A stretch of 64,000 nt of DNA from Bacteroidales bacterium. Its GTDB lineage: Bacteria > Bacteroidota > Bacteroidia > Bacteroidales > SZUA-534. A program made the position numbers and the translations under genes. The notes under the pieces are model-generated. The model did not search any database, had not been told where the DNA came from, and saw only the letters and a program-made list of their open reading frames with translations. The DNA lies in the NCBI GenBank assembly GCA_046704385.1, contig JBJKSB010000105.1, positions 165-64,164 of the forward strand. Reading direction: 5' to 3'. Within the stretch, counting starts at the first letter, position 1, and the number at the start of each line of letters is the position of its first letter. Below, piece by piece: positions 1 through 22,100 of the stretch.

Positions 1-1072
1 ATTTTTTTCCTATAATATAATAAATATTATTCCTTCCCGATAGACATAATATATTATTCAGACCCGGGTTGTGAAAAAAAGTTTTCCTGTATTCAGGTAA
101 ATTTTGAAACCATTGGTCAAATTCCAGCTTATCCTTGCTTGCCAGGTACCTTGAAGGCATTCCGCCAAGCCTGGCAAGGTGAATTAAGTCCAGTTCGTTG
201 TTACCGTTGTCGGCAAGTGTCCATAATTGATGCAGCGCATGTTGTAACACCGGAAGCTGGTCGAAGCCGTCGCGAAGTTCGTTTATAAGTACTTCCGTAA
301 GTCTGTTCGATACTTTACCGCCTGACAGCAGGGCCGGTTCTTCAATAACCTGTCTTATTTCATTACGCTTCAGACGGGGAACAAAAAACTGGCTAAAACC
401 GATCATTTCAGGCAAACCTTTAAAAGCCACGCACTGGCTTATAAAGTCCGACCGCATGGTAAATACTATATATATGGGTAAATTGTCATGTAAAGCTATG
501 TTGGCAGTTTCTAATAATAAATTCACCGTAGTGTATGCATCCACCGAAGGTTTACCCGATCGGTAATTTTCATTATTGGTAAAAAACTCTTCAAACTGAT
601 CGGCAAGTATAAACAGGTTTGCCGATTTATTGCGCCTTGTTTTTTGCTCATACGAACTGGCGTTTATCCATTGTTCAGAGGATTCATCAATATAATATTC
701 TGAAGTTTTATAAAGTTCAACAAGGGCTGAAAAACCATTACTTAACTTTTTTTCAATTTCATCAACGTCTTTTTTAAGTTGCTTGCTCAACGATTCGGCA
801 AGTGTATAAAGAGGATTGCGTTCAGGTTTAAAATCAACAAATAACCAATTGTTATATTCGGCATGAAAAAAACCAGCTCTTGCATTAGGTATTACGCCGG
901 CATAAACTAATGAGGATTTACCATCGCCCGATGCACCGGTAATCATAATAATTTTCCGTTCCTCAAGTTGCTTTATAATCTTACGGATATGTACATCACG
1001 TCCTTTAAAAAAGATGGACTCCTCTTCGTTATATGGGCGCAACCCGGGATAGGGACATTTTTTTTTATTCAT
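1..1072 (-). CDS. nSTAND/NACHT-like STAND P-loop NTPase, N-terminal 357 codons only; the gene continues beyond the window start
   Basis: The frame is open from the ATG at 1072..1070 to position 1. It is missing from the ORF track because it is truncated. My translation: MNKKKCPYPGLRPYNEEESIFFKGRDVHIRKIIKQLEERKIIMITGASGDGKSSLVYAGVIP...ANLFILADQFEEFF... It has the PYxGLxxY...FFxGR leader, a Walker A GASGDGKS (914..937) and an hhhhDQFEE Walker B (Asp codon 599..601). These are hallmarks of the nSTAND1-type STAND ATPases. Confidence 0.75.
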   Translation of the reverse strand, partial: MNKKKCPYPGLRPYNEEESIFFKGRDVHIRKIIKQLEERKIIMITGASGDGKSSLVYAGVIPNARAGFFHAEYNNWLFVDFKPERNPLYTLAESLSKQLKKDVDEIEKKLSNGFSALVELYKTSEYYIDESSEQWINASSYEQKTRRNKSANLFILADQFEEFFTNNENYRSGKPSVDAYTTVNLLLETANIALHDNLPIYIVFTMRSDFISQCVAFKGLPEMIGFSQFFVPRLKRNEIRQVIEEPALLSGGKVSNRLTEVLINELRDGFDQLPVLQHALHQLWTLADNGNNELDLIHLARLGGMPSRYLASKDKLEFDQWFQNLPEYRKTFFHNPGLNNILCLSGRNNIYYIIGKK

Positions 1073-1075
1073 TTT

Positions 1076-1918
1076 TTAATTTGAAAATAGTTTATCAAAC
1101 AATACTTTTATTTCGAGAGGGATTAGTTCAGTACTTGTAGAAATATTAATCACATTGGGAGCATCAAAACTTAAATTCTTGTTTTGTTCATGTTCTGTAT
1201 CGCCAATAAGTACCATGGTTTTATTGGTTGATGCCCCGCCAGTATTTTTCCATATTTGTTGAATGAAAGGCAAAGCCCAGTTTCCGGTATGATTAAAATA
1301 GACAACGGTAAGTTGAGAGTTCTGAATTTGCCGGACAATAAATTCTAAATAGTCTATTTCTGATCGTAATGACAGATTCAGTTTTTCGACTTTTACCACA
1401 TCGCTTAAAAGTTCGACTATTCCCTTTCCTTTTTCTTCATCAATTTCATTATGGATGAAGAAAATATTTGACTGTTTTATGTTGTCTTCAGCAGGTTGTT
1501 CCTCATGAATTATCGACCGTATGTCTTCGACAAATAATATCGGAGAATTATGGTTACAAAAGGCAACATTCTGAATCAGGTTATTTCGTATGGAATTAAT
1601 AAAAAGGGATTGTTCCGCTGAAATCTCCTGTAATGAAATAGTTTCGGGTTGCCAGATAAAAATTCTGTACTTTTTGTTTTTCCCCTTTTGCAGATACGAT
1701 TGTTGCAACCAAAATTGTTCTTCTGATATAGTAGGATCAAATTCCGAAGCATGATATTCATTTCCAATAATATGTATTGCACATTGGGTATTCCCGATCT
1801 CTTCCTGATTGGTAAAAACCCCTATATCAGCCGACTGCAGTACCTGAATCAGGTGATTATAGTATTGAGATACTGATTTACCGGCTTTAGGGACAAAGGC
1901 TTTTATTAAAGAATTCAA
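1076..1918 (-). CDS. uncharacterised 280-aa cytoplasmic alpha/beta protein with TIR-like/flavodoxin-like beta-alpha-beta segments
   Basis: ORF track entry with no signal peptide. Segments such as SNIFFIHNEIDEEKGKGIVELLSD...QLTVVYFNHTGNWALPFIQQIW and KYRIFIWQPE resemble the betaA/alphaA and later strands of TIR-like folds. Its stop (1076..1078) lies 3 nt from the start (1072) of the STAND NTPase gene. The fold assignment is tentative. Confidence 0.6.
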   Translation of the reverse strand: MNSLIKAFVPKAGKSVSQYYNHLIQVLQSADIGVFTNQEEIGNTQCAIHIIGNEYHASEFDPTISEEQFWLQQSYLQKGKNKKYRIFIWQPETISLQEISAEQSLFINSIRNNLIQNVAFCNHNSPILFVEDIRSIIHEEQPAEDNIKQSNIFFIHNEIDEEKGKGIVELLSDVVKVEKLNLSLRSEIDYLEFIVRQIQNSQLTVVYFNHTGNWALPFIQQIWKNTGGASTNKTMVLIGDTEHEQNKNLSFDAPNVINISTSTELIPLEIKVLFDKLFSN

Positions 1919-2041
1919 TTTCAGATTGTTTTTAAAAGGCGTTAATATGCCCTGCTAAATTTTAAATAAGTTTTATCACGAGTGAATCATTATTAAACCA
2001 AAGTAACTTTAGTTTAAAAAGTCATTTATTTGTTACTTTTT

Positions 2042-2096
2042 TCATTGCATTTACCAATTTAATGCAATGAGATATCTGAGGTATCTATCTCAGATA
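2042..2096. promoter_or_regulatory. two adjacent stem-loops in the 485-bp spacer between the giant adhesin gene and the TIR-like/STAND cassette
   Basis: Hairpin 1: tcattgcatt (2042..2051) pairs with aatgcaatga (2061..2070), 9-nt loop. Hairpin 2: tatctgaggt (2073..2082) pairs with atctcagata (2087..2096) with one G-U pair and a 4-nt loop. The role (terminator, insulator or operator) is unknown. Confidence 0.3.
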
Positions 2097-2277
2097 CTTA
2101 ATTTTAAATAGCCTATATTCTATTTAAGTGTCAAAAGTATTTGAGGAGGGTTTTACTATCAATTAATATATGCAAAAGCGAATATTGTGTAGACAAAACA
2201 ATACAATTAGTCGATTAATGAAGAAACCACTAATAGATATATAATTCATAAATAAATTCATCGATTAATATCGGTTA

Positions 2278-2403
2278 TGTACTCCGCCGTTGTCGTATAA
2301 CGACTTGATAAGCAGCGCTTTTGACCTCAAACAAATAGTATCCTTTTATTCCTTCATTTTTGCATATGTCAGTTGCAGTATTAATACCTTTGATAAGGTT
2401 TGT
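2278..2403 (-). pseudogene. fossil T9SS C-terminal-domain tail, in frame directly after the stop codon of the giant gene
   Basis: Reading through the TAG at 2404..2406 gives TNLIKGINTATDICKNEGIKGYYLFEVKSAAYQVVIRQRRST then stop at 2275..2277. The segment NEGIKGYYLFEVKS...VVIRQ parallels the functional tail KGPIKPGIYLLRIDTGMEISLRKVILN. Confidence 0.4.
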
Positions 2404-5400
2404 CTAATTAAGAATTACTTTTCGTAAACTTATTTCCATACCTGTATCAATTCTCAGCAGGTAAATTCCGGGTTTAATGGGTCCTTTTTCAAATGAAATC
2501 AGCTTTTGGTTGTGACCCGAAATTTCTTTAATAATTTCTCCGGTGATTGTCATAAGGGTTATTTTTTTGATACCGGTTTTATTCGATTTGACAAAGAGCT
2601 TGTTTGAGGCAGGATTCGGATATATCAATATGTCCTGATTAACCGGTTTGAATTCAATTATTCCCACTCCTTTAATAACTTTAATATTGATTTCAGCGGT
2701 ATAGCTTAAACCGGTATGGTCGACGGCATCTACGAAAAACCGATGAATGGTATCATTAAAGGACAGGTGTTTCTTCATCACTAGACTATCGCCTGTCAGG
2801 GTATAATATTTGCTGTCGATAACTCCGTTATCGTAGTTAAACATGAAGGTGTGGGTATCCAGGGTATCCTCGTCGAGAGCGGAAAATATACCCACAAAAA
2901 GATTATTTTCATTAGTTGTGGTCAAGCTATCGCATGATAAGCTGATACCATATGGGGCTTCCGGCATATCAACAAGCTTTATAAAAAAGGTTTTCTCATA
3001 ATAATTATACTGATTGTCGCGGGTTTTGATTTTTACCTGGTGCGATTTTTCTTTTTCATAATTCAGGTTTTTACCCCAAAGAGCATTTTCAATCACAAAA
3101 AAATGCTGGGTATCGGCAACTACCTCGTAGGTAAAAGAATCATCAGGGGTTTTATCTACAGTAGAAAGTATACCAACAGGACTGTTACCGGAATTATTTT
3201 CATCCACGGTTTGATTGTTTAGTAAGATATCGGTAGGAGAATAATCGAAAGCCAGTGGCAATTTTATAAGTTCGTGCGGGTAGGTGGTAATTTGTTTACC
3301 TTTTTTTGAGGTGCTGTATTTTCCAAGACCAAAGTAAGCTTCATTGTCTATAATAAAAGCGACAGGGTTCAGTCTTTTGGTGGAGATCCCGGGCATGTCA
3401 TTAAGTTTCGTCACTTTGTTTGATTGGGGGTGATACCTGAAAATACTTGCTGTGTTACCGTAACATAAAAAGGCGCTGTTACCTTCAGCAATTACCGATC
3501 CGTTTGATATGGAAAAAGTTGAGCTATCTTGTGAATTTTTCTCAATCCATTGGTTTAATTCCGGATTAAACTCATAAATATCGCCCAAAGCAACTGATTT
3601 TGAATTTATACCACCGGCAAGATAAATTTTATCATAAATTTCAAAAGTCAGCGCACCGTTCCTTGGGGCAAATGAAGGTGTTGGTAATGAATTCCACCGG
3701 TTTTGTTCGGCATTATAGCTGAAGAAATCGTTAAACCGAACAGTGTCATTTCCATTAGAATACTGAATGCCGGTACCTACATACGACTTGTTGTTAAGGA
3801 CGAATGACACTGCTTCAGAGCGGGCCTTACCATTAAAATCGGCTATTTGATTCCAGAAGTTTATGGCAGGATCAAAACAATAAAAATCCTTAAAGTTATG
3901 ATTAGTCAACTTGTTAAATCCCAGCCCGATATAAACCTTTCCTCCCAGAACAAATGAAACTGCATTGGAACGCGCCTCTCCCGGAAAGGTGGAAATCCTG
4001 GTCCAATTATTAGTTGAAGTGCTGAATTTCCAAAGATCGTTAAAAACCGCTGTTTCATTTTCTCCCAGCCCGATGTAAACTTCGTTATTAAGAACAAAGC
4101 TAATGGCTCCCGAACGGCCGTCACCCAAAAACAGGCCAATACCTCCGCAATTGTTTTTAATGTTGTATGTAATAGTATCAACCGGAATGAAGGGATCGTT
4201 GCTTATGACTAGCAGGTTACCTTTCGGTGAAGGAAGGGTATTGAAAGGGATATAGTTTGTAAAAACCAGCGTATCGGTAGTTTCCGGCTGTAACTCGCCG
4301 CGTGTTTTATCAAGTTTAATCTGGTTTGAACAGGCACCGCTTATGGCCACATCGTCAATATAAACGCCATCGAAGGTATTTATGATATCGGAAGTAAAAT
4401 GAAACCTTATGTTAAGGGAATCGCCTTTGATGACATAGCCTGATAAATTGAATGACTTCAGGCGCCAGTCAATGGTATTATTTACTTCATCTAAAGTTAT
4501 CCACGGACCATGGTTTACAGAAAGTTCTGTGCTTAAAAAATCGCAGCAGGCTTCCATATCATTAAAAATATGATAACTGAGTTTACAACTGTCGGGATCG
4601 GTTATTGTAATGGCATTTTTCAGTGAAATATAATTATCTGAGTTGTTTGCATAATTAGCATCCGGACTGTCAGTTAATGCAACGCTACCATTGTAAGAAC
4701 TATTTGTTAAACCCCAGCCACCGGTGAAATCCCAGTTTATTAAACCATTCTCAAAATCATCATAAAAATCGATGGGAAAGTAATAATGTAAGGGGGCACT
4801 TCCGCCATTTTTAAGCAGAATGTTAAACCGGGTTTCGTTTCCGCAAACCTGAACAGTATCAATGTTTTTCGGCGAAAAGCTTAGTATTGGATAGGGTTTC
4901 CCTTTTCCCTGGACAAAAATAAATGTGGTGTCCAGATTTTTTGTGTTATTTATGATACCGATTTTCCCATTATAAATCAAGGAATCAGTGGGTGTGAAAT
5001 TAATTTTAAGGTTTTCGAAAGAGCCCGGTACAATGGTAGGATTAAAAGCGGAATCTACTATAAATTCATCTGACGATGAAAAGACTTTTAAAATTTTCAA
5101 AGTATCGCAACCCTGGTTAAACAATTGCATGGTGCGCATATTCGAAACTGTAACAGGAGTTGCATCAAATATTAGGCTATCGGAAGCCGGCACCAGCAAA
5201 CTCATTTTTTGGATGGAATAGGTGCACAAAATGGAATCATCCGGTTTATAGGGATCATTGCTGAAAATGTGAACAGCCGATTTATAAAAATCATCTTCAG
5301 TATAATTTGCATCAAAAGAAACGACAAGATCCCTGGAAACGCCAGGCGGAATGGTGCCTGAAGAATCACTTAAAACCAGATCCGCTACATTTGTTTCCTT

Positions 5401-8400
5401 AATTTCTGAGAGGTTATTTGGAATAGTACTGATAACATAATCAAGAGGCAGGGAACCTGTGTTTTGTAGCGTGATTGTAGAGTTAATATTTTCACTGCAA
5501 TTAAGCAAGGTGTCAATCCGGTTATCAGAAATTACAAGGTATGGATAAGGATTACCTCTACCCGAAACATCCAAATAACTCGTATCGCTACCGATGCCGG
5601 AATTAACCATACCAATCTGGCTGTTGTAGATAATGGAATCCACAGGTTCAAAAATGATTTCAACATAACCGGTATCAGCCGGAGCAATGCAACGGTTATA
5701 ATTTGGATTGATACTGAAGGCCTGGATTTTGGCCAAGATTTGGGTAATATGTAAGGTATCGCATCCGAGGTTCACGAATCCCGACTTAAGTGTATCTTTT
5801 TCAAATACATTTTGGTTACCAAAATGCAAGGAACTGTCCAGCAAGGTTAAGGTACTGTACTTATTAATTTTGTATTTGCAGTAAAAGGTGTCTATCCTCT
5901 GGAAGGGGTCGTTGCTTTCAATCCGAAATTGTTGTTTAATATTTTCACCTCCTGTCTCGGTGGCATTAAATGATAGCGTCAATTCTTCAGTGGCACCCGG
6001 AGCTAACATTGCTTCCGGTATATCTACCAATATTTTACCGATGCCCGATCCGGTAAGTTTAATATCATCCAGACTGACACCGTCCTTGGTAATTGCTCCA
6101 TCAGTTTTGAGCCTGAACATAATATTCAGGGAATCACTGGTGCTGATATATTCAGCCAGATTAATTTGTTTTGTTATCCAGGCGCTGGTGCCAGTCTCCT
6201 GATCAATACTTATCCAGGCTCCATTATTGACCTTTATTAACGTTTCAACCAGGTCACAACATTCTTCTATTTCGTATTTTATGCGGTACGAAAGCCAGCA
6301 ATTTGTTTTATCAAATACCCTGAAAGGTTTTTTCAGACAGATAGATGCATCGGAATTATTCTGATAAAAACCGTCAGGACTATCACTAATAAAAGTATTT
6401 CCATCAATGGTTTCCGTTGCCCAGGGGCCGACGATTTCCCAGTTTTCCAGGTTGTTGTCAAAACCGTCGTAAAAATCCTGGGGGATTGAATATTCCAGGG
6501 TATCTGAACCATTATTATGGATTTTAATTTTTGAATGGACCGTTTCATCACACAACAGGCTGGTATCAATAACAGTGGCACTAAGCTCTAAAACAGGATA
6601 GGGATTTCCCTGGCCTTTAACTCTGAAATAAGTTGTGTCGTTAACCATATCATTTTTGACAATATAAATATTGCCGCTTGTAACTATGGAATCCACTGGG
6701 TTAAATGTCACTTTTAACCTGACTGAATCATTTGGAGCCACCAAGATATTTTCATTTAAGATTCCGGAAAATCTTGGATTATCAGAAAACACTTTTTCTA
6801 TTTTCAGGGTGTCGCAACCGGTATTCATTAAATATAGCCAGGATGTATCTGACAACAGAACATTAATGGGATTAAAAACCAATGAATCATTTGAAAGTAC
6901 CAGTGTACTAAAACGGTTGAGTTCAAAATAACACGAAACGGTGTCTGATTTTTTTAAAGGATCATTCGTGTGGATACAAAACCGGGTAAAGAAAAATGAC
7001 TCATCAATGATATTGGCATTGAATTTAATAAAGACGGTATCTTTTGTCCCGGGAGCAATGGTTCCATAATTTTTATTAAAGTGGATGTTTTCGGTGCCGG
7101 TTCCTGTAATATTAATGTTATCAATTAATACTCCGTCAAAAGTATTGGTACCATCACTGGTAAAGCGGAAACGTAATCCGAGAGAATCGCCGGGGTTAAG
7201 ATATTCTGAAAGGTTGAATGTTGCGTTATTCCGGTTATTTATGCCATTTTTATGGAGAATTTCAAGCCATTCGTTATTATTGATTTGAATTTCAGCCATA
7301 AAGGCATCACAACAATTTTCCATTTGCGTTTGGTAGTCAAAGTTTAACTGACAATTTTCAGCATTGAAAACCTTGATTTTATTTTTAAGTGATACTATCG
7401 AATTTGAGTTGTTTGAATATAAATCGTTGGGGCTGTCAGCCAGTACATGGTTTTTTGTAATTGTATCATATTGAATTCCCCAACTGCCTGTTACATTCCA
7501 TTGGGAAAGATCTTCTTCAAAATTTTCCGTGAAATCCGTTGGAATTTTGTATTCCAGTGAACTTTTTCCGTTGTTTTCAATAATCAGGTTTACCACAGTA
7601 GAATCGGTGCAATCCAAGGAGGCCTCAATTTTTTTATTTTGGATATAAAAACCGGGAGCTGGCAACCCTTTTCCCAAGACGATGATGGTATCTTTGGGGG
7701 CTTTTCGATAATTACTTTCGATAACTATCCATGAATTATAAGTTTTATCAGTTTTCGGTTTAAATACGATTTCAAAAGCCAGTGAATCAAGTGGGTTAAT
7801 TACCCGGTTGTTGACTTCAGGAGCCAGTATATCACTATCGCCTGATGTAATTGAGCTTATTGTTACCGGATACGAATTGTAATTCACAGCAAATATTTCT
7901 TTAGTTTGTGAAAGACCGGTAAGCAGGCTGTCAAATTCAAGTGTATCCAGCTTTGCTCCAAAAAGCAGGGCCGGTTCTTCCGATAATTCATAAGCACCCA
8001 TATCCACTATAGAATCCGTCAACCCGCGATAAATACGGTTGTTACCTGCAAGGTCGTATCGTAAATTAATGCCGCCAAAGTTTGGGCTGCCCATATCTAT
8101 ACATGGGCTAGTAGGCTTTAATGTATAAATGCCGTTCTCAATATTTTCAAATTCAGGGTCAATATCTAAATTTCCGTTGGTGTTGAAACCTGCATTAAGA
8201 ATATCACTGAATAAAATATAATTTCCCGGGTTGGTTAACTCCTTTATATTGCCGGATTGATTGTAAGCAATTATGCAATTTTTAATAACAGGAGTATAAC
8301 TGTTCCGGTTAATTCCGAAACCACTGTTTTGTACAATAATATTATTGACGATCAGCGGATTTCCGTTGTCGCTTATTTCAATTCCGGTTCCTGAATTGCT

Positions 8401-8955
8401 GGCTATCAGGTTGTCAATAATTTGAGGATTGCTGTTTCGAATGTAAATAATTCCATTTGACCCCACAGCTTGGCTTTTTATGAATTTACAATTTCGAATA
8501 CGTATTTTGTTAAAATCTTTAATGGCCAGAATTCCTCCCTGCTGATCAATCCAGTTTGAACCAAAAGCATTTCCAAAATAAAATTCGCAATAATCGAAAA
8601 ATGAGCTATCGTTGGTTGCCGGCGTATTTATAAACCGTATACCCTGCCATCCACCGGAAGAACTTGTCAGCAGACTATCACCAGCTGTAAAAACAATCTT
8701 TTCATTAAAGGTGCCGCACGCCAGCAAAGTTCCTTCAACGTTTATACTAAAATGACCCTGAAATTCCAAAAGAGTACCAGGATTAACCGTCAACGTTACA
8801 CCATCCTGAACGGATATGTTACCGGTGATTTTAACCGTATCGGCACTCAATACTTCATCTGAGTCGATAATTCCGCTTTTTAATATGGTGGTTTGGGCCT
8901 TAATTGTAAAAAAGTTTACAAAAAACACGCACAATAAGAGTAATTTATGGTTCAT
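2404..8955 (-). CDS. 2183-aa T9SS-secreted modular surface protein (beta-helix, Ig-like/jelly-roll repeats, Kelch propeller, cadherin-like repeats, T9SS CTD)
   Basis: Approximate layout:
- Signal peptide MNHKLLLLCVFFVNFFTIKAQ.
- Parallel beta-helix repeats, aa ~25-325 (NSGTGIEISDNGNPLIVNNIIVQNSGFGI...VDMGAYEL).
- Four repeat units, aa ~432-1602.
- Kelch-like blades, aa ~1603-1885 (VYIGLG...FNDLWKF...W).
- Two cadherin-like units, aa ~1905-2097.
- CTD: ILIYPNPASNKLFV...GIYLLRIDTGMEISLRKVILN. Confidence 0.9.
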   Translation of the reverse strand: MNHKLLLLCVFFVNFFTIKAQTTILKSGIIDSDEVLSADTVKITGNISVQDGVTLTVNPGTLLEFQGHFSINVEGTLLACGTFNEKIVFTAGDSLLTSSSGGWQGIRFINTPATNDSSFFDYCEFYFGNAFGSNWIDQQGGILAIKDFNKIRIRNCKFIKSQAVGSNGIIYIRNSNPQIIDNLIASNSGTGIEISDNGNPLIVNNIIVQNSGFGINRNSYTPVIKNCIIAYNQSGNIKELTNPGNYILFSDILNAGFNTNGNLDIDPEFENIENGIYTLKPTSPCIDMGSPNFGGINLRYDLAGNNRIYRGLTDSIVDMGAYELSEEPALLFGAKLDTLEFDSLLTGLSQTKEIFAVNYNSYPVTISSITSGDSDILAPEVNNRVINPLDSLAFEIVFKPKTDKTYNSWIVIESNYRKAPKDTIIVLGKGLPAPGFYIQNKKIEASLDCTDSTVVNLIIENNGKSSLEYKIPTDFTENFEEDLSQWNVTGSWGIQYDTITKNHVLADSPNDLYSNNSNSIVSLKNKIKVFNAENCQLNFDYQTQMENCCDAFMAEIQINNNEWLEILHKNGINNRNNATFNLSEYLNPGDSLGLRFRFTSDGTNTFDGVLIDNINITGTGTENIHFNKNYGTIAPGTKDTVFIKFNANIIDESFFFTRFCIHTNDPLKKSDTVSCYFELNRFSTLVLSNDSLVFNPINVLLSDTSWLYLMNTGCDTLKIEKVFSDNPRFSGILNENILVAPNDSVRLKVTFNPVDSIVTSGNIYIVKNDMVNDTTYFRVKGQGNPYPVLELSATVIDTSLLCDETVHSKIKIHNNGSDTLEYSIPQDFYDGFDNNLENWEIVGPWATETIDGNTFISDSPDGFYQNNSDASICLKKPFRVFDKTNCWLSYRIKYEIEECCDLVETLIKVNNGAWISIDQETGTSAWITKQINLAEYISTSDSLNIMFRLKTDGAITKDGVSLDDIKLTGSGIGKILVDIPEAMLAPGATEELTLSFNATETGGENIKQQFRIESNDPFQRIDTFYCKYKINKYSTLTLLDSSLHFGNQNVFEKDTLKSGFVNLGCDTLHITQILAKIQAFSINPNYNRCIAPADTGYVEIIFEPVDSIIYNSQIGMVNSGIGSDTSYLDVSGRGNPYPYLVISDNRIDTLLNCSENINSTITLQNTGSLPLDYVISTIPNNLSEIKETNVADLVLSDSSGTIPPGVSRDLVVSFDANYTEDDFYKSAVHIFSNDPYKPDDSILCTYSIQKMSLLVPASDSLIFDATPVTVSNMRTMQLFNQGCDTLKILKVFSSSDEFIVDSAFNPTIVPGSFENLKINFTPTDSLIYNGKIGIINNTKNLDTTFIFVQGKGKPYPILSFSPKNIDTVQVCGNETRFNILLKNGGSAPLHYYFPIDFYDDFENGLINWDFTGGWGLTNSSYNGSVALTDSPDANYANNSDNYISLKNAITITDPDSCKLSYHIFNDMEACCDFLSTELSVNHGPWITLDEVNNTIDWRLKSFNLSGYVIKGDSLNIRFHFTSDIINTFDGVYIDDVAISGACSNQIKLDKTRGELQPETTDTLVFTNYIPFNTLPSPKGNLLVISNDPFIPVDTITYNIKNNCGGIGLFLGDGRSGAISFVLNNEVYIGLGENETAVFNDLWKFSTSTNNWTRISTFPGEARSNAVSFVLGGKVYIGLGFNKLTNHNFKDFYCFDPAINFWNQIADFNGKARSEAVSFVLNNKSYVGTGIQYSNGNDTVRFNDFFSYNAEQNRWNSLPTPSFAPRNGALTFEIYDKIYLAGGINSKSVALGDIYEFNPELNQWIEKNSQDSSTFSISNGSVIAEGNSAFLCYGNTASIFRYHPQSNKVTKLNDMPGISTKRLNPVAFIIDNEAYFGLGKYSTSKKGKQITTYPHELIKLPLAFDYSPTDILLNNQTVDENNSGNSPVGILSTVDKTPDDSFTYEVVADTQHFFVIENALWGKNLNYEKEKSHQVKIKTRDNQYNYYEKTFFIKLVDMPEAPYGISLSCDSLTTTNENNLFVGIFSALDEDTLDTHTFMFNYDNGVIDSKYYTLTGDSLVMKKHLSFNDTIHRFFVDAVDHTGLSYTAEINIKVIKGVGIIEFKPVNQDILIYPNPASNKLFVKSNKTGIKKITLMTITGEIIKEISGHNQKLISFEKGPIKPGIYLLRIDTGMEISLRKVILN
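4150..7662 (-). repeat. protein-level tandem modules inside the giant gene: 4 units of about 220-350 aa, each ending G(N/K)PYP; 3 units carry a jelly-roll (MAM or choice-of-anchor-J-like) insert
   Basis: Unit boundaries are GNPYP at aa 783-787 and 1134-1138, and GKPYP at aa 1352-1356. The jelly-roll inserts lie at about 7102..7530, 6046..6477 and 4333..4770. They share NW.(V/F).G.WG...DSP...Y.NNS...C.L...E.CCD...W motifs (MENCCDAF, IEECCDLV, MEACCDFL). Confidence 0.75.
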
Positions 8956-9986: not shown

Positions 9987-11066
9987 ATGAAAATAATGGA
10001 AACAGAGTGTTTGATAAAAGAGGAATACTTATCGCACGATGGAGGTAAGAATGTAAAATATTTAAAATATAACCAGGAATTTATCCTCGAAAGCGGAGAA
10101 TCGTTACCTGAAATAGATATTGCTTATACCACCTATGGTAAGATGAATGCCGATCAGAGTAATGTGGTGTGGATGTGTCACGCATTTACGGCAAACTCCG
10201 ATCCTGTAGATTGGTGGCCGGGAATGGTTGGGGAAGGATATTTTTTTGATCCTGCCAAATATTTCATTGTATGTGCCAATATTATAGGATCGTGTTATGG
10301 ATCAACAGGGCCGCTTTCAATTAATCCAAAAACCGGCCGACCTTATTTCAGAAGTTTTCCACAGGTTACAGTACGAGACCAGGTTAAAGCCCACGAAATT
10401 TTACGTGAACACCTGGGAATTCATAACATTTACCTGATTTTAGGTTGTTCTATTGGAGGACATCAGGCCCTTGAATGGACCATCTCAAACCCAGATTTGT
10501 TTCAGAATGCTTTTTATGTAGCTACCAATGCGGTAAATTCACCGTGGGTTACAGCCTTCGACGAAAGTCAGCGTTTAGCGATACTGGCCGATCAAACCTA
10601 TTTTGAAGATCGTCCCGAAGGTGGTGCAAATGGTATGAAAGCTGCCCGAAGCATGGCCTTAATCAGTTACCGGAATCGTAACGCCTATAATAAAACACAG
10701 GCCGAAGAAGATATCGATAAACACGATAATTACAAGGCCAGTTCTTACCAGGCTTATCAGGGTGATAAATTGGTAAAACGGTTTAATGCTTACTCATATT
10801 TTTACCTTACCAAAGCTCTCGATTCGCATAATGTAGGAAGAAACCGCGGAGGCTTTGAAAAAGCACTGGCCCGAATCAAAGCAAAGGCGTTAATTATCTC
10901 TATCGACACCGACTTATTATTCACAACAGAAGATCAGCAAATTATTCACAAATATATACCCGGAAGCAAACTCGAATTTTTGGAATCATTCTACGGCCAC
11001 GATGGATTTTTACTGGAATTTGAAAAGCAGAATAAAATTTACGCTGATTTTCTGGGATTGGAATAA
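9987..11066 (+). CDS. metX: homoserine O-acetyltransferase
   Basis: 359 aa with an alpha/beta hydrolase fold and the GCSIGGHQALEW nucleophile elbow. Typical MetX N-terminus (ESGESLPEIDIAYTTYG) and C-terminus (SFYGHDGFL). Confidence 0.9.
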   Translation: MKIMETECLIKEEYLSHDGGKNVKYLKYNQEFILESGESLPEIDIAYTTYGKMNADQSNVVWMCHAFTANSDPVDWWPGMVGEGYFFDPAKYFIVCANIIGSCYGSTGPLSINPKTGRPYFRSFPQVTVRDQVKAHEILREHLGIHNIYLILGCSIGGHQALEWTISNPDLFQNAFYVATNAVNSPWVTAFDESQRLAILADQTYFEDRPEGGANGMKAARSMALISYRNRNAYNKTQAEEDIDKHDNYKASSYQAYQGDKLVKRFNAYSYFYLTKALDSHNVGRNRGGFEKALARIKAKALIISIDTDLLFTTEDQQIIHKYIPGSKLEFLESFYGHDGFLLEFEKQNKIYADFLGLE

Positions 11067-11138
11067 ACCAGTGATTGGAAAATTGGAACAATAAAACATT
11101 CAAACACTTGAACAATATAACATTCGAATAATAATAAA

Positions 11139-12341
11139 ATGAACCCACATATTAAAATAGGATTAATTGGCTTCGGGACAGTTGGCGAAGGACTGTACGA
11201 GGTTATGCAGAAGTCGCAAAATGCACGCGCTGAAATCAAACGGATTTGCATAAAGAATCCGGAAAAACGCAGGAAACTTACCGGCGAAATTTTTACGCTA
11301 AATGTTGATGAATTAATTAACGACGATGAAATTAACCTCATTGTTGAGTTAATTGATGATGCAGAAGATGCCTACCATATTGTTAAAAAAGCATTGATAA
11401 GCGGCAAATCGGTAGTATCGGGAAATAAGAAAATGATTGCCACCCACATAAAGGAACTCATTGAAATACAGAAGGAATATAATGCAGCATTATTGTATGA
11501 TGCTTCAGCCTGCGGAAGCATTCCGGTTATCAGGAACCTGGAGGAATATTACGATAATGATTTGTTAAAATCAATTACAGGAATACTTAACGGATCATCA
11601 AACTTTATTCTGACCCGTATTTTTAATGATAAAATGGATTATTCCACTGCCCTGAAAATGGCTCAGGATTTGGGTTTTGCTGAAAGCAACCCTGTTTTTG
11701 ATGTGGAGGGATTCGATAGTTTATATAAGCTTGTGATTTTGGCAGTGCATGGTTTTGGAACAATGGTAAATCCTGATGATGTACTGAATTATGGAATATC
11801 GAAAATATCGGATTTTGATATTCAATATGCCCGCGAAAAAGGGTATCGGATTAAACTGGTTGCCCAGGTTACAAAAATCAGCAAAGGTAAAATTACAATG
11901 TACGTGTTGCCTCGCCTGGTAACACCTGATAAATATATTTATGGTGTTGAGGATGAATTTAACGGAGTGGTAATTCAGGGCGAAGCTTATGATAAACAAT
12001 TTATGTTTGGGAAAGGGGCCGGGGGACATCCAACGGGTTCTGCAGTATTGTCGGATATTACTGCCCGTTTGCATAATTACAAATACGAGTACAAAAAACA
12101 AAAATATTTTACCGTGCCCGACTATAGCACCGATCACAAATTAAAAATATATTTAAGATATACTAACTCACTTGGTTTCAGCCATTTCGATTTCGAAGAA
12201 ATTTTGGAACGTTACACCTCTAAACAAAATAACTATGTTATTGGTACAATTAAGCTGGATAACTTATTAAAAATTAAAAAACTGCTTCCCAAATTAGATA
12301 TATTTATCGCCTATTTGGGAGATTTAGTTAATACGTATTGA
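11139..12341 (+). CDS. hom: homoserine dehydrogenase
   Basis: 400 aa. N-terminal Rossmann motif [12 protein letters not shown], catalytic-domain motifs ([29 protein letters not shown]) and an ACT-like tail. Confidence 0.9.
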
Positions 12342-12393
12342 AGCAAAATCAGCGTTTGTCTGCGAGCTTAAAAAAACAGGAAGGATAAGAAAA

Positions 12394-15300
12394 ATGTCAG
12401 ATAAGAAAGTTAGTATAGAAGAATTAGTAAAAAAACGAATATTAATTCTCGATGGTGCTACAGGTACAATGATTCAAAGATATAAGCTTACTGAATCGGA
12501 TTTTAGGGGAGAAGAATTTAAGGATCATCCGGTTGACTTAAAAGGCAATAATGATTTGCTTTCTGTAACACGTCCTGAAATCTGTAAAGAGATACATAAA
12601 AAGTTTTTAGAGGCCGGTTCCGATATTATTGAAACCAACACCTTTAATTCAACCAGCATATCACAGGCTGATTATTCCTTGGAATCGCAGGTGCGACGGA
12701 TTAATGTGGAAGCTGCAAAAAATGCCCGTGAAGTAGCAGACTTATTCACTGCTCAAAATTCGGATAAACCCAGGTTTGTTGCAGGATCGATGGGACCTAC
12801 CAATAAAACAGCATCTATTTCACCCGATGTAAACGACCCTTCAAAACGGTCAATAACGTTCGATCAATTGGTGGACGCTTACCAGGAGCAAGCCGAAGGA
12901 TTAATTGAAGGAGGAGTTGATCTACTTTTAATTGAAACAGTTTTCGATATTCTGAATGCCAAAGCAGCCTATGTTGGTGTAGTAAATGCCTTTGAAAAAT
13001 ATAACACAAAATTGCCTATAATGATGTCGGTGACTATTGCCGACAAAAGCGGTCGTACGCTTTCAGGCCAAACCGTTGAGGCGTTTATTATCTCGCTTTC
13101 GCATATGGATTTGTTGAGCATCGGGCTGAATTGCAGTTTTGGTGCTGAAGGTTTGCGTCCTTATTTGGAGGAACTGGCTGCTAAAGCGCCATGGTTTATT
13201 TCTGTTTATCCCAATGCCGGACTACCCAACCAACTGGGTGAATACGATGAATTGCCCAAAACAATGGCAGGCCAGATTGAAGGTTTTCTGAAAAACCAAC
13301 TGGTGAATATTGTCGGAGGCTGCTGTGGTACCACTCCCGATCATATTTCAGCTATTGCTGAGATAATAAAAGGATATAAGCCACACGAACGCTCTGTGTT
13401 AAAAACCGAAACCCGGTTAAGTGGTCTTGAACCCTTGAAAATTTCGAAGGAACGTAATTTTGTAAATATTGGAGAACGTACCAATGTGGCGGGTTCAATG
13501 AAATTTGCCCGTTTAATTCGCGAAAAAAAATACGAAGAAGCTCTTTCTATTGCCCGCAACCAGGTTGAGGGTGGTGCCCAGGTTATTGATGTAAATCTTG
13601 ATGACGGATTACTGGATGCCGTGCACGAAATGACAACTTTTCTGAACTACATTGTTTCGGAACCTGAAATTTCGAGGTTACCTGTAATGATTGATTCCTC
13701 GAAATGGGAAGCAATCGAAGCCGGCTTAAAAGTCTTGCAGGGCAAGGCTATTGTAAACTCAATAAGCCTGAAGGAAGGGGAAGAGGAATTTATTGATAAA
13801 GCAAAAAAAATACGCAACTACGGAGCTGCAGTAGTAATTATGGCCTTTGATGAAGAAGGCCAGGCTGTTACTGCTGACCGTAAGCAGGCTATTTGTAAAA
13901 GAGCCTATGATATATGGGTACATCAGCTGGGATTTCCTCCTGAAGATATAATTTTCGATCCCAACATCCTGGCCATTGCCACAGGGATGGAAGAGCACAA
14001 TAATTACGGAGTTGAGTTTATTGAAGCCGTGACATGGATCAAGGCGAATTTGCCCCATGCTAAAATCAGTGGCGGGTTGAGCAACCTGTCGTTTAGTTTC
14101 AGGGGGAACAATACCGTTCGTGAAGCTATTCATTCGGTGTTTTTGTATTACGCCATTAAAGAAGGAATGGATATGGCTATCCTGAATCCGGGAATGATCC
14201 AGATTTATGATGATATTCCAAAGGATTTGCTGAAACTGGTTGAAGATGTGGTGTTAAATCGACATCCCGATGCCGGTGAAAAATTGATTGAGTTTGCCGA
14301 AACCATTAAAAATGATGGTAAGGAAGAGGTTAAAACTTTGGAATGGCGGGAAAAATCGCTTGAAGACCGGTTGATTTATTCTTTAATGAAAGGCATTAAT
14401 GATTTCTTGCAGCAGGACCTTGACGAAGCTTTGCAGAAATATTCACCTACATTACGCATTATTGAAGGGCCGTTGATGGATGGAATGAATGTGGTTGGAG
14501 ACCTTTTTGGTGATGGGAAAATGTTCCTGCCCCAGGTGGTTAAAACTGCACGGGTTATGAAACAGGCAGTTGCCATCCTACAACCCTACATTGAGGCTGA
14601 AAAGGAAAATGGTGGCGGAGAGCGCACCTTTAACGGTAAAATTCAGATGGCTACTGTTAAAGGCGATGTTCATGATATAGGTAAAAACATTGTAAATGTG
14701 GTACTGGCCTGCAATAATTACGACACGATGGATCTTGGAGTAATGACTCCCTGCCAGACGATCCTGGATTCGGCACGTGAAAACAATGTGGATGTGATAG
14801 CTTGTAGCGGTCTTATTACCCCATCGCTTGATGAAATGGTTACAGTGGCGCAGGAAATGGAGAAAAATGGTTTTACCATTCCTTTATTTGTTGGTGGAGC
14901 AACAACCTCGAAACTTCATACAGCCTTGAAAATAGATCCTCATTATAGTGGACCAGTGGTTCATGCCAAAGATGCCTCTGAGGCTGTAAAGCTTATGAAC
15001 GAAGTAATGAATAAGGAAACAGGCCCGGCATTTTGTGCCAATCTGAAAAAGGAATACGAAAAGATACGAATACATCATAATAACACAGGTAAAGTGCTTT
15101 TAAGTCTGCAAGAAGCGCAAAATAAAAAAATGCCTTTTAATATTTCTGAAGCAGATATAGTGAAACCCCAAAAATTAGGTCTGAGTTTGATTGAAGATTA
15201 TGATTTGGCTGAAATTCGCAACTATATCGACTGGACGTTTTTCTTTATATCATGGGATTTTAAAGGTAAATACCCTGATATTTTAAATGATCCGGAAAAG

Positions 15301-16068
15301 GGTGAAGAGGCTAAAAAATTATATGATGATGCCAATAAACTCATAGATCAGATTATTGAAGAAAAGGCTCTGCAGGCTAATGCCGTTTATGGTTTATTCC
15401 CTGCAAATGGTGAGGGTGAGGATATTATTATTTACGATGCTTACGACGAAACCAAAGAAATTGCCCGTTACCATGGATTACGGCAACAAAATCCTGCCCC
15501 CAACAGTGAATATTGTAATTCTCTATCGGATTTTGTGGCTCCGGTATCATCGGGAGTTAAAGACTATGTGGGAGCATTTGCAGTTACAGCCGGAATCAAT
15601 ATCGAAAAGAAACTGGAAGAGTATAAAGCTAAAAATGATGAGTACCTGGGTATCTTAATCAAATTTGTGGCCGATAGGTTGGCTGAAGCTTTCACGGAAT
15701 TAATCCACCTAAAAATCAGGAAAAAATGGTGGGGTTATGCCCCTGATGAAAAAATCAGTTTTGATGATTTACTGGCCATGAAATACCGTGGCATTCGCCC
15801 GGCAATAGGATACCCGGCCTGCCCCGAGCATACCGAAAAGCAAATGCTTTTTGATTTAATCGGGGCAAATAATGCCGGCATCAGTTTGACTGAGAATTTT
15901 GCCATGATGCCAAATGCTTCGGTTTCCGGTTTGTTGTTGGCGCATCCAAAATCAAGCTATTTCGGGATTGGTAAAATTGGTAAAGATCAGGTTGAAAATT
16001 ATGCAAAAAGGAAAGAGTGGGATACAAGCAAAGCGGAGAAATGGCTGGGTCCGTTACTTAATTATTAG
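12394..16068 (+). CDS. metH: cobalamin-dependent methionine synthase
   Basis: 1224 aa with all modules present: Hcy-binding (GGCCGTTP), pterin-binding, a B12-binding cap and Rossmann ([13 protein letters not shown], the DxHxxG motif), and the C-terminal AdoMet activation domain. Confidence 0.95.
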
Positions 16069-16206
16069 TTCAAAAACAACTTTGCCAACTTTATATCACC
16101 AACAAAAACAATGAGATTTTTGGTATTTCTGCATTTACAATATAGCTTAGCAGCCTGAAATTACTGTTACTAAAACAAATTAAAAAATTATTAACCGATT
16201 ATTCGA

Positions 16207-17160
16207 ATGAAAGTAATTGACCTGATTAACAACAGAAAAAAAACCCTTTTTTCAATTGAAATTGTGCCCCCGTTAAGAGGAAATAAACTTGAGGGCATTT
16301 ATAGAAAGATTGATCAGCTGGTGGAATTTAACCCGGCTTTTATTAATATTACCTATCATAAGGATGAAGCTGTTTACACAACGTTAAAGGACGGTTCGGT
16401 TAAAAAGAGAATTATATCAAAACGGCCTGGTACGGTAGCGTTAACAGCGTCAATAATGAACAAGTATAAGGTTGAAGTGGTACCTCATATTACTTGTGGG
16501 GGATTTACCCTTGACCAGGTGGAAAATGCCTTAATCGATTTTAACTTTCTGGGAATTGAAAATCTTTTAGTTTTGCAGGGTGATGCAGGTCGAGGCCAGA
16601 CAAAATTTATACCAGAAGAGAATGGGCATACCCACGCTGTTGATTTGCTTGAACAAGTGATGCATATGAATAAAGGCAAATACCTTGATGAAAAACTGGA
16701 GCAGGGTTACCCATCGAATTTTTGTGTGGGAGTAGCAGGATATCCTGAAAAACATTATGCAGCCGCTAGCCTCGATTCTGACATCCAATACCTGAAAGCT
16801 AAAGTACTGGCCGGGGCTGATTACATTGTGACCCAGATGTTTTTTGATAATCAAAAATATTATGAGTTTGTAGATAAATGTCGCGCGGAGGGAATTGATG
16901 TGCCCATTGTTCCGGGTTTAAAACCTATAGCATTAATAAATCAGGTTAATGTTTTACCAAAATTATTCCACCTGCATATTCCCGAAACTCTTGAAAAGGA
17001 GATACTAAAATGCAGAACCGACGAAGAAGCACTTGAAGTTGGAACTCAGTGGGGAATTGAACAAGCCAGGGATTTGATACAAAATGGTGCACCCGTTTTG
17101 CATTTTTATACGCTTGGAGCAGGGAATAGCATAAGAAAAATAGCAGAGGCAATATTTTAA
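16207..17160 (+). CDS. metF: 5,10-methylenetetrahydrofolate reductase
   Basis: 317 aa with MetF family motifs (FSIEIVPP, NITYH, LVLQGD, DYIVTQMFFD). Confidence 0.9.
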   Translation: MKVIDLINNRKKTLFSIEIVPPLRGNKLEGIYRKIDQLVEFNPAFINITYHKDEAVYTTLKDGSVKKRIISKRPGTVALTASIMNKYKVEVVPHITCGGFTLDQVENALIDFNFLGIENLLVLQGDAGRGQTKFIPEENGHTHAVDLLEQVMHMNKGKYLDEKLEQGYPSNFCVGVAGYPEKHYAAASLDSDIQYLKAKVLAGADYIVTQMFFDNQKYYEFVDKCRAEGIDVPIVPGLKPIALINQVNVLPKLFHLHIPETLEKEILKCRTDEEALEVGTQWGIEQARDLIQNGAPVLHFYTLGAGNSIRKIAEAIF

Positions 17161-17231
17161 AAAGCGGTAAGTAAAGTATACACTGAAGCCAAAATTATAT
17201 TGGGGATATAATTGTAGAAGGGGTTTGTTCT

Positions 17232-17672: not shown

Positions 17673-17706
17673 ACCTCAAAAATAAGAAAATATTTCTTAT
17701 TGAAAA

Positions 17707-18600: not shown

Positions 18601-18692
18601 AGCGACATGTTTTTCGATTTTCAGGAGTGGCAAAATTAAAAAAAATAAAGCAAATAAGCCTTAATTCAGGTAAAACACAATTGCTTTTTAGT

Positions 18693-22080: not shown

Positions 22081-22100
22081 TAAAGTTCATAATCATTGTA

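Follow-up and report, generated by a model that had tools for sequence, protein, structure and literature searches.

Two genes at the left edge of the window (the whole stretch of Bacteroidales DNA that was analysed, 64,000 nucleotides) are the promoter-proximal end of a conserved five-gene operon. On balance, this operon seems to encode a trans-envelope NLR-like (STAND) sensing system in which the product of the first gene, a 280-aa protein called g1 here, acts in trans as a non-catalytic adaptor. The sequence-only reading had described the two genes as a tightly coupled cassette. Full-length orthologue loci carry, in this order, g1, an nSTAND1 gene, an outer-membrane beta-barrel protein, a lipoprotein and a membrane-anchored PP2C phosphatase, and three of them (L002, L004, and L006) have the identical five genes. 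Two of the five are visible in the window, one of them truncated, and neither the other operon genes nor a second copy of the cassette occurs within it. The coordinates given earlier for the pair are correct: the 280-aa ORF stops at 1076..1078 and the next minus-strand ORF follows from 1072 after 3 nt. The features are these.

1..46, minus strand: tail that is unlike the STAND orthologues in alignment with them and reads CLSGRNNIYYIIGKK in frame
47..1072, minus strand: N-terminal 342 codons of an nSTAND1 NTPase (PF20703), which align with full-length orthologues up to ...PGLNNIL
1073..1075, minus strand: 3-nt spacer between g1 stop and STAND start, a tight coupling
1076..1918, minus strand: g1, an ORF of 280 aa with a TTG start at 1918 and a TAA stop at 1078..1076
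1079..1483, minus strand: g1 C-terminal domain, aa 146-280, a second TIR-like fold (AF2 and Foldseek)
1499..1918, minus strand: g1 N-terminal domain, aa 1-140, a divergent DUF4062/NIR-type TIR-like domain (Pfam matches of homologues)
1706..1726, minus strand: g1 motif S65-E-E-Q-F-W70-L71, with Trp at the position of the DUF4062 catalytic Glu
1919..2403, minus strand: 485-bp spacer upstream of g1, with short inverted repeats at 2000..2127

The structured spacer had been recognized earlier, as had the adhesin gene on its far side (2404..8955), which encodes a surface protein of 2183 aa. The operon's promoter or 5' leader presumably lies in this spacer, along with the terminator of the adhesin gene. 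The spacer matches no Rfam family at E values up to 1. A scan for sigma-70-type promoters gave no more sites in it than in shuffled sequence, using a tool without a Bacteroidota promoter model.

The link between g1 and the STAND gene extends across genomes. Among 71 independent, species-level loci with enough downstream sequence, 65 have an nSTAND1 gene downstream of g1 on the same strand, directly adjacent in 53. In this check of co-occurrence, which had been suggested for the two families, the pairing thus goes beyond chance. In 48 of 57 orthologous pairs at most 20 nt separate the two genes, and several pairs overlap. Four proteins (P0093, P0103, P0122, and P0183) have the g1 module fused in front of nSTAND1, with a transmembrane helix and WD40 in the same chain. 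Distant relatives that bear a TIR (P0060, P0149, and P0139) also lie directly upstream of nSTAND1 genes, and relatives with a canonical Glu-bearing TIR fused ahead of the g1 module fill the same operon slot. In other words, g1 is a detachable N-terminal module of the nSTAND1 protein, supplied in trans. The earlier proposal was that the upstream gene supplies an effector or adaptor in trans. The trans arrangement stands, given the four fusions and the conserved adjacency, whereas an effector is unlikely because Trp or Gln occupies the position of the catalytic Glu (see below).

The STAND ORF starts with ATG at 1072..1070 on the minus strand and remains open to window position 1 (357 codons). 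Its nSTAND leader, CPYPGLRPYNEEESIFFKGRD, is found at aa 6-26, and the Walker A (GASGDGKSS, aa 46-54, 911..937) and Walker B (ILADQFEE, aa 155-162, 587..610) motifs are intact, all as first quoted. PF20703 (nSTAND1) matches aa 7-305 with 194 bits against a cut-off of 27.1 (E 8e-57). Therefore, this is a STAND protein without an N-terminal effector domain of its own, as had been claimed. Protein-database sources label the nSTAND1 homologues of this protein "EcfA2 transporter ATP-binding protein" or "hypothetical."

Homology to the orthologues ends after codon 342 (window position 47) and the last 46 nt are unrelated. Translated by eye, the sequence past ...PGLNNIL matches the orthologues in none of the three frames, and as far as the alignment can tell the junction is a breakpoint rather than a frameshift. 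On the source contig (76,684 nt) the gene yields a product of 359 aa, two residues past the window edge, and the C-terminal helical region and the repeat sensor are missing from it. For a 64-kb window to start only a few bases from a contig end would be an unlikely coincidence, which makes a stop codon the likelier cause of this length. An independent 4.3-kb Logan contig stops 25 nt beyond the junction (window position 22) and has a mismatch there. If the k-mer of the Logan assembly is about 31, as we take it to be, a break at this distance fits a repeat or a polymorphic junction. The 46-nt foreign tail has no other copy within the window and no match in two metagenome scans, and no mobile element was identified. 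A homologue search with the STAND fragment listed only proteins below 600 aa despite the existence of 1,080-aa orthologues, and these lengths are not used as evidence of naturally short forms.

The window copy appears to be cut off after the NTPase domain and so is perhaps disrupted. What if the cassette here is just a broken remnant? Then an insertion or rearrangement, probably involving a repeated element, broke the STAND gene after codon 342 and left a 359-aa NTPase-only product and a non-functional pair. The chances of this are about even. In its favour are the abrupt end of homology with nothing recognizable beyond it in any frame, the length of the product and the assembly break with its mismatch, together with further truncated nSTAND1 products on very long contigs (P0200, 387 aa; P0202, 586 aa). 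However, the tail matched nothing in the two metagenome scans, and a chimeric assembly is an alternative explanation for the junction. In addition, g1 has kept every family-invariant residue, which means that any disruption would be recent. A remnant in the window is compatible with the sensing-system explanation for the family as a whole.

That sensing-system explanation draws on the intact loci. Full-length STAND orthologues (1080-1107 aa) begin with the NTPase and continue with a helical region, one transmembrane helix and a coiled coil before a WD40 propeller. A single transmembrane helix is found near residue 570 in 55 of 56 full-length STANDs, with basic residues before it and the coiled coil and then WD40 after it. 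The protein is predicted to span the inner membrane, with the coiled coil and the WD40 sensor part in the periplasm. The fused protein P0122 has a C-terminal LysM confirmed by Pfam, and P0093 ends in a similar sequence (LysM by eye). LysM is a peptidoglycan-binding domain. The third operon gene has a match to OMP_b-brl_2 (E 1.8e-6), a signal peptide and a TPR-like N-terminus, and the fourth has a lipoprotein-type signal ending in Cys. The fifth matches SpoIIE (E 2e-16) and has an N-terminal membrane anchor; what we take to be PP2C metal-binding motifs are visible in its sequence. Of the 37 loci with 9 kb or more of sequence, 31 have a PP2C gene downstream. Where g1 lacks a TIR, such a gene is present in 35 of 41 loci, versus none of three where g1 bears one, an apparent complementarity that involves only those three TIR-bearing loci, with limited flanks. 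The operon encodes no kinase and no obvious PP2C substrate.

Could such an operon be ordinary Bacteroidota trans-envelope signalling rather than defence? It might respond to envelope or peptidoglycan stress, or control gliding or type IX secretion, with the STAND protein as a switch, PP2C as the signalling enzyme and g1 as a regulatory subunit. Most of the components are envelope proteins (barrel, lipoprotein, predicted periplasmic WD40, and LysM). The accessory genes inserted in the operon include one for a membrane protein with a GldM N-terminal domain in L011 (a similar 424-aa protein is recognizable by eye in L018) and one for an FG-GAP/OmpA protein, and in L091 PorP/SprF and CHU_C genes adjoin the fused form. 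What can be seen of the flank in the window is of a housekeeping nature (methionine biosynthesis and a tRNA synthetase), the GC content of the cassette (36.5%) is close to that of the window (38.1%) and g1 looks non-catalytic. The PADLOC check suggested for the locus did not reveal a defence system. None of the five operon proteins has a convincing match and g1 has none at all; the STAND protein has weak ones, both as the window fragment (mad8, E 6.5e-4; typeIV_DinG, E 0.0068; LmuB, E 0.16) and as a full-length orthologue (mad8, E 0.0047; PD-T4-6, E 0.052).

Nevertheless, several observations speak against ordinary signalling. The distribution is patchy, with g1 in 324 of 185,579 species representatives, and the operon is confined almost wholly to Bacteroidota. 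Genomic context varies between loci. Only 33 of 1035 locus pairs have a homologous ORF in common upstream, and the pair is not part of a conserved core-genome neighbourhood, although membership of one had been named as grounds for abandoning a defence role. Tandem STAND paralogues occur at several loci, and the sensor region diverges steeply, the STAND proteins having a mean pairwise identity of 63% over the NTPase but 29% over the WD40 part. Truncation may be common (P0200, P0202, and the window), restriction-modification genes (between g1 and STAND in L014 and L016) and Fic genes are found inside the operon, and sister systems have a catalytic-type TIR. Features of this kind are typical of conflict systems, without being proof. 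Ordinary signalling is possible but rather doubtful. A defence role for the operon is plausible, and its biological role is most likely envelope surveillance in a conflict or defence setting.

The next issue is what g1 contributes to such a sensing system. It is a cytoplasmic protein that, according to the structural models, has two TIR-like alpha/beta domains in tandem, which extends the earlier description of it as TIR-like. The AF2 model of full-length g1 (pLDDT 87.5) has two beta-alpha domains, its secondary structure shows the five-stranded beta-alpha arrangement of TIR-like folds and TIR domains are among the best single-domain Foldseek matches. This assignment depends on AF2 models and moderate Foldseek scores (TM 0.55-0.6), with PurE/LarB, DNPH1 and small GTPases scoring nearby. 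The window g1 itself has no Pfam, PADLOC, or NCBIfam match, and no Pfam family, including PF13271 (DUF4062), appears even at E values up to 1. The DUF4062 signal surfaced only via homologues, not in direct family searches. PF13271 matches 20 of 46 g1 homologues at E below 0.1 in the N-terminal domain (residues about 7-92), and TIR_2 matches seven of the 46 in the same region. Some homologues exceed the PF13271 cut-off (P0034, 31.1 bits against 24.7). When solved structures were searched by sequence, neither the g1 profile nor that of the C-domain nor a canonical DUF4062 segment had a usable match.

The C-terminal domain is the most conserved part of the protein. Its AF2 model has a pLDDT of 93.5, and its top Foldseek matches are the bacterial TIR domains AbTir, PdTIR, and TcpB (E 2e-4 to 2e-3, TM 0.55-0.6). 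A SLOG, STAS, or receiver fold had been considered because of a GGAS motif and the PP2C partner, but it was rejected in view of these top matches. The two domains of g1 have no sequence similarity to each other by hhalign (probability 0.4%), and so an internal duplication is not claimed. Eleven residues of the C-terminal domain are invariant in the family (N157, D160, Y190, W214, F218, W223, G227, G228, E269, K271, and D275) and the window g1 retains all of them. The strongly conserved ones (N157, D160, W214, F218, W223, GGA, E269, K271, and D275) could form an active site.

DUF4062 domains at the N-terminus of Avs or NLR-like proteins have been shown by experiment to be NADase effectors. The catalytic Glu sits in the "acidic-SYT ... 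E87-Y88" motif of Eva01 (2026 preprint) and corresponds to E97 in KpSwz and E108 in PsAvs2. Defence is lost when it is changed to Gln in PsAvs2 (E108Q), Vulcan (E98Q), or VstA (E103Q). Positions 78-79 of the Pfam profile are E-Y in P0146 versus Q-[FY] in g1-like domains. Among 124 unique family members the catalytic-Glu column holds Q in 89 (71%), W in 10, H in nine and E in five (4%). A search for the catalytic Glu in the 280-aa protein itself comes up with W70 at the aligned position, as mapped from Pfam match coordinates and the text of preprints, not by structural superposition. In the subclade of the window two acidic residues, E66 and E67, lie one helical turn before this column, and they might be stand-ins for the missing Glu. 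The W-x-x-E motif of canonical TIR domains (PF13676 / PF01582) is absent from g1, and helix alpha-C of the C-terminal domain (WALPFIQQIW) contains nothing acidic. By contrast, W-K-x-E-F is present in the additional N-terminal TIR of P0060, P0086, P0088, and P0074.

With no Glu at the DUF4062/TIR catalytic position, g1 is probably a non-catalytic adaptor or scaffold rather than an enzyme that destroys NAD. An active TIR/DUF4062-type NADase or signal-generating enzyme, activated in trans by the STAND protein to deplete NAD in abortive infection as in PsAvs2-NIR, Swarozyc, and Vulcan, would fit the TIR-like fold of both domains, the DUF4062 and TIR_2 matches and experimental precedents, the acidic residues at S65+1 to S65+3 and the invariant polar and aromatic cluster with E269 and D160, but it is improbable given the rarity of Glu in the catalytic column, the use of E-to-Q as the standard inactivating mutation in PsAvs2, Vulcan, and Vesta, the lack of an acidic residue in alpha-C and the separate canonical W-x-x-E TIR that sister lineages add before the g1 module, which suggests that the module itself does not supply that activity.

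How might a sensing system with g1 as its adaptor work? The periplasmic WD40 part, together with the outer-membrane protein and the lipoprotein, would sense a cue at the envelope. Ligand-induced, NTP-dependent oligomerization of the cytoplasmic NTPase would then cluster the bound g1 molecules, and clustered g1 would have a scaffolding or adaptor function instead of NADase activity. In the lineage of the window the PP2C phosphatase would be the most likely source of the enzymatic output or reset. Sister lineages may instead rely on a canonical Glu-bearing TIR ahead of the g1 module.

No description of the five-gene operon was found in the literature, but its parts have relatives. The closest likeness is to PsAvs2, an NLR-like/Avs protein with an N-terminal DUF4062 (NIR) domain (bioRxiv 10.64898/2026.09.04.749371), and to the eukaryotic DUF4062-NACHT-WD40 proteins TEP1 and NWD1 (bioRxiv 10.64898/2026.05.01.722283). 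The order of DUF4062-type TIR-like module, STAND NTPase and repeat sensor is the same (with WD40 as in TEP1/NWD1), and it is exact in the four fused proteins. However, g1 and STAND are normally split into two genes, there are two TIR-like domains rather than one, Gln or Trp takes the place of the catalytic Glu and the NTPase is of the nSTAND1 clade. In addition, the transmembrane helix is predicted to put the sensor outside the cytoplasm, and three genes are added (outer-membrane protein, lipoprotein, and PP2C). The Avs-type tripartite order of effector, STAND and sensor is kept across two genes (or one, in the fused forms), but the "effector" looks non-catalytic and the sensor is predicted to be periplasmic.

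Conflict systems with nSTAND1 proteins, including some in Bacteroidetes, have been described by Kaur, Burroughs, Iyer, and Aravind (eLife 2020, PMC7159879; eLife 2021, PMC8195603). As far as the searched parts of these two papers go, the systems have the same NTPase clade, an effector or adaptor fused to or adjoining the STAND protein and WD40 or other repeats as the sensor. They differ in being cytoplasmic, with effector-associated domain pairs and caspase, trypsin, or TIR effectors. Those parts describe no tandem TIR-like partner, no conserved transmembrane helix and no genes for an outer-membrane protein, lipoprotein, or PP2C. Swarozyc, Evangelion, Vulcan, and Vesta, defence systems that consist of a single DUF4062 protein (2026 preprints), belong to the same TIR-like superfamily as the N-terminal domain of g1, and VstA and Eva01 also couple a DUF4062-type core with a conserved C-terminal auxiliary domain. 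However, they require the catalytic Glu (E97, E87, E98, and E103, respectively) and deplete NAD+, whereas g1 lacks that Glu, has a second domain that is itself TIR-like and is tied to a STAND protein. Finally, and by analogy only, animal Toll-like receptors also have a repeat sensor outside the cytoplasm and a single transmembrane helix, with a non-enzymatic TIR-type scaffold on the cytoplasmic face. They are not homologous as a system: here a STAND lies between membrane and TIR-like module, the repeats are WD40 rather than LRR and the TIR-like part is a separate polypeptide.

A bolder version of the sensing-system explanation is a long shot. Perhaps the operon is an innate-immune-type receptor spanning the Bacteroidota envelope, in which a periplasmic WD40 (sometimes also LysM) ectodomain, the barrel and the lipoprotein detect phage attachment or injection, or wall damage, and the signal passes via STAND oligomers and dead TIR-like scaffolds to the membrane-tethered PP2C. 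If so, it would combine Toll-like receptor logic with an NLR switch and be read out by protein dephosphorylation, not NAD+ depletion.

To our knowledge, the characterized bacterial NLR-like defence proteins (Avs, bNACHT, and DUF4062/NIR) have cytoplasmic sensors and usually kill via an enzymatic N-terminal domain. The g1-STAND family has the same module order, but with a predicted extracytoplasmic sensor, dedicated envelope partners, a TIR-like module whose catalytic Glu has been replaced and an added PP2C. If the model is right, what happens at the cell surface can be reported through STAND switches. Comparing the TIR-bearing versions with the TIR-less, PP2C-bearing ones could show how a TIR-type enzyme becomes a scaffold, and the family offers a bacterial comparison for the DUF4062-NACHT-WD40 proteins TEP1 and NWD1.

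The left edge of the window holds two minus-strand genes that are nearly contiguous. The ORFs as read, with the flank on their other side, are as follows.

1-46: 46 nt foreign to STAND orthologues, the last stretch of the STAND ORF inside the window
1-1072, minus strand: nSTAND1 NTPase (STAND) ORF, starting with ATG at 1072, 3 bases past the g1 stop, and open to window position 1
1076-1918, minus strand: g1, an ORF of 280 codons from TTG at 1918 to TAA at 1078..1076
2000..2127: inverted repeats in the 485-bp spacer between g1 and the upstream gene for a 2183-aa surface protein
2404-8955, minus strand: the 2183-aa secreted protein, with repeated domains
9987-24257: housekeeping block encoding an alpha/beta hydrolase, homoserine dehydrogenase, B12-dependent methionine synthase (MetH), MTHFR, a class II aminoacyl-tRNA synthetase and an FAD-dependent oxidoreductase

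These coordinates corroborate the adjacency and 3-nt gap described in the sequence-only reading, as well as its 485-bp structured spacer before the adhesin gene. The STAND ORF has the leader CPYPGLRPYNEEESIFFKGRD, Walker A (GASGDGKSS) and Walker B (ILADQFEE), and its Pfam nSTAND1 match begins at residue 7 (E 8e-57). Therefore, it has no N-terminal effector domain of its own, as had been proposed. An Rfam scan of the spacer returned no family matches. The inverted-repeat cluster is found 85-210 nt before the g1 start. Among its elements are a perfect stem of 10 nt (2042-2051/2061-2070) and a hairpin at 2073-2096. An adhesin terminator and an operon leader are candidate roles.

The link between g1 and STAND extends well beyond this genome. 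With one genome scanned per species, 324 species have a g1 relative; the best 80 of these loci come nearly all from MAGs of Bacteroidota, plus a few records of Ignavibacteria/Chlorobi type. Among the 71 of those 80 with at least 1 kb of downstream sequence, 65 have a same-strand nSTAND1 homologue downstream, directly adjacent in 53, so the co-occurrence of the two families holds across genomes. In 48/57 adjacent pairs, no more than 20 nt separate the g1 stop from the STAND start, and several pairs overlap. An exhaustive profile search also uncovered four proteins (P0093, 1605 aa; P0103; P0122; P0183) with the g1 module joined straight to the front of nSTAND1, the fusion junction being the site of the 3-nt spacer in the window. 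In more distant relatives, a canonical TIR that keeps its W-x-x-E motif is joined to between one and three DUF4062 repeats of the Gln type, and the C-terminal domain resembles that of g1. Three of these TIR-bearing proteins (P0060, P0149, P0139) are encoded immediately upstream of nSTAND1 genes, and another relative, P0074, has an additional nucleotide cyclase domain. Taken together, the co-occurrence, short spacing, fusions and adjacency in distant relatives are strong evidence that g1 is the N-terminal module of STAND, provided in trans. The upstream gene had been suggested to supply an effector or adaptor in trans. The in trans part of that idea stands, but the effector part is unlikely, given the residues found at the catalytic Glu column (see below).

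What kind of protein is g1? It has no matches in Pfam, PADLOC or NCBIfam. A database search yielded 46 full-length homologues (33-63% identity), and when these were scanned one by one 20 matched DUF4062 and seven matched TIR_2, invariably at about residues 7-92. An AlphaFold2 model (pLDDT 87.5) has two beta-alpha domains, residues 1-139 and 150-280, and TIR domains rank among its best single-domain Foldseek matches. The C-terminal domain modelled alone (pLDDT 93.5) best matches the bacterial TIR domains AbTir, PdTIR and TcpB/BtpA (E 2e-4 to 2e-3, TM 0.55-0.6), with DNPH1 and small GTPases ranking lower. Direct comparison of the two g1 domains detects no sequence similarity between them. From the homologue matches, the models and the Foldseek results, g1 is predicted to be a tandem pair of TIR-like domains, the first a divergent DUF4062. 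The earlier view of the upstream protein as TIR-like is thus upheld.

Whether g1 is an enzyme is a separate issue. Three 2026 preprints identify DUF4062, now called NIR, as an NADase of TIR-like type and as the N-terminal effector both in Avs and NLR-like proteins and in Swarozyc, Evangelion, Vulcan and Vesta. Activity depends on one Glu (KpSwz E97, PsAvs2 E108, Eva01 E87 beside Y88, Vulcan E98 and VstA E103), and E-to-Q is the experimental substitution that kills these enzymes (2026 preprints). The Pfam DUF4062 matches in the relatives share one common end column. P0146, the relative with the strongest DUF4062 match, has E-Y at profile positions 78-79, where g1-like domains have Q-F or Q-Y. 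At the catalytic Glu column, mapped by Pfam profile coordinates rather than structural superposition, Q is found in 89 of 124 unique family members, W in 10, H in 9 and E in 5, and the window g1 has W70. Two residues earlier E is present in only 59 and K in 31, and the window g1 has Q68. In addition, helix alpha-C of the C-terminal domain (WALPFIQQIW) lacks an acidic residue. NADase activity of g1 is therefore unlikely, judging by these residues. A caveat to the non-catalytic reading is that E66 and E67 are retained one helical turn earlier in the subclade of the window. The C-terminal domain is the most conserved region of g1. Its invariant residues (N157, D160, Y190, W214, F218, W223, G227, G228, E269, K271 and D275) point to a conserved interface or pocket, and the window g1 retains all family-invariant residues.

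The cassette is more than two genes. Three long contigs carry the same five genes, with homologues at 41-56% identity, in different surroundings (the mraZ/dcw cluster, CorA and peptidase M1). The order is g1, STAND (1080-1107 aa), two proteins with lengths near 350 and 400 aa, and a PP2C of the SpoIIE type (about 390 aa). In full-length STAND the NTPase is followed by a helical region and then, around residue 570, by one hydrophobic helix with a KKRRK-type basic cluster just before it. Beyond the helix come about 100 residues of coiled coil rich in Ala, Glu, Lys and Gln, and after these a WD40 propeller. The hydrophobic helix is present in 55/56 full-length homologues. The fused form P0122 has a Pfam-confirmed C-terminal LysM, and the C-terminal sequence of P0093 resembles LysM by eye. 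LysM binds peptidoglycan and so, together with the helix, places the C-terminal half of STAND, by prediction, in the periplasm. The gene 3 product carries a signal peptide, is TPR-like at its N-terminus and matches the OMP_b-brl_2 barrel (E 1.8e-6); gene 4 has a lipoprotein-type signal with Cys at its end. At its N-terminus the PP2C has a membrane anchor; it also contains a coiled coil and the motifs DCTGHG, SDG and DD, which we take to be metal-binding. Among loci with 9 kb or more of sequence, 31/37 have a PP2C gene downstream. What if the PP2C stands in for TIR as the enzymatic arm? Its presence in 35/41 loci with TIR-less g1 versus 0/3 with TIR-bearing g1, a very small sample, fits this idea.

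The STAND copy in the window appears truncated. Its alignment with orthologues stops at ...PGLNNIL (codon 342, window position 47), after which it reads CLSGRNNIYYIIGKK, unmatched by orthologues in all three frames (translated by eye). For the 76,684-nt source contig the recorded product has 359 aa and ends two residues past the window edge. An independent Logan contig (L001) ends 25 nt beyond the junction, at window position 22, with one mismatch there. Two independent assemblies break or diverge within 1-46, which looks like the edge of a putative inserted or repeated element. The simplest reading is that insertion or rearrangement involving repeated sequence has left a truncated, NTPase-only STAND in this genome. 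Two truncated nSTAND1 products on a contig of 1.03 Mb, P0200 (387 aa) and P0202 (586 aa), diverge at kinds of positions like that in the window copy, after ...NAHANEL and at the transmembrane helix, and could be real pseudogenes or frameshift errors. Several nSTAND1 homologues are labelled 'energy-coupling factor transporter ATP-binding protein EcfA2' by JGI, apparently a misannotation through P-loop similarity.

On the other side, the C-terminus of the 2183-aa protein resembles a type IX secretion sorting domain by eye. The protein at 22101-24257 matches Por_Secre_tail and peptidase M43, and such sorting tails mark the genome as Bacteroidota.

The mechanism of the five-gene system is something that we infer, and envelope surveillance in a conflict setting ranks first. 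One reason is distribution: it is patchy, and a homologous ORF within 8 kb upstream is common to only 33/1035 locus pairs. Another is the drop in mean pairwise identity between the STAND NTPase (63%) and the WD40 region (29%). Genes inserted between g1 and STAND include a type II restriction-modification pair (N6/N4 DNA methylase and R.HinP1I-type endonuclease, L014:9556-11099), a Type ISP-like enzyme (L016:8532-10895) and an opposite-strand Fic protein (L073:11396-12535), and sister systems have a catalytic-type TIR. STAND paralogues also occur in tandem at several loci. Two nSTAND1 paralogues per locus are found in L030, L034, L043, L046, L056, L060, L078, L079 and L088, back to back in L060, L079 and L088 and after the PP2C gene in L030, L034, L043, L046 and L056. 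This doubling suggests receptor diversification. Ordinary envelope signalling ranks second. Against a conflict role, PADLOC, a check named in the sequence-only reading, gave no convincing match for any of the five proteins, the 9987-24257 side of the window is housekeeping with no visible defence genes, and the GC content of the cassette is unshifted. Accessory genes between g1 and STAND are also recurrently envelope-related: a multi-pass membrane protein with a GldM N-terminal domain (L011:10855-12141), a 424-aa protein like it by eye (L018:1701-2972) and an FG-GAP/OmpA protein (L029:10870-13302). A distant relative in L092 (1720-4422 and 4710-5429) has a TIR/DUF4062 protein together with a 900-aa nSTAND1 that has its own TIR_2/ThsB_TIR and DUF4231, and an HTH_17 and PIN gene pair adjoins.

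The g1-STAND system groups with nSTAND1 conflict systems, and no description of its five-gene operon was found in the searchable literature. Its module order is shared with DUF4062/NIR-STAND-repeat proteins, namely PsAvs2 (bioRxiv 10.64898/2026.09.04.749371) and TEP1/NWD1 of eukaryotes (bioRxiv 10.64898/2026.05.01.722283). However, it differs from both in being split over two genes, in having two TIR-like modules, in the absence of the catalytic Glu from g1, in its predicted periplasmic sensor and in three more conserved genes downstream. The coupling of g1 to STAND also indicates that the g1 module is the constant adaptor portion, with an enzymatic TIR added in some lineages.
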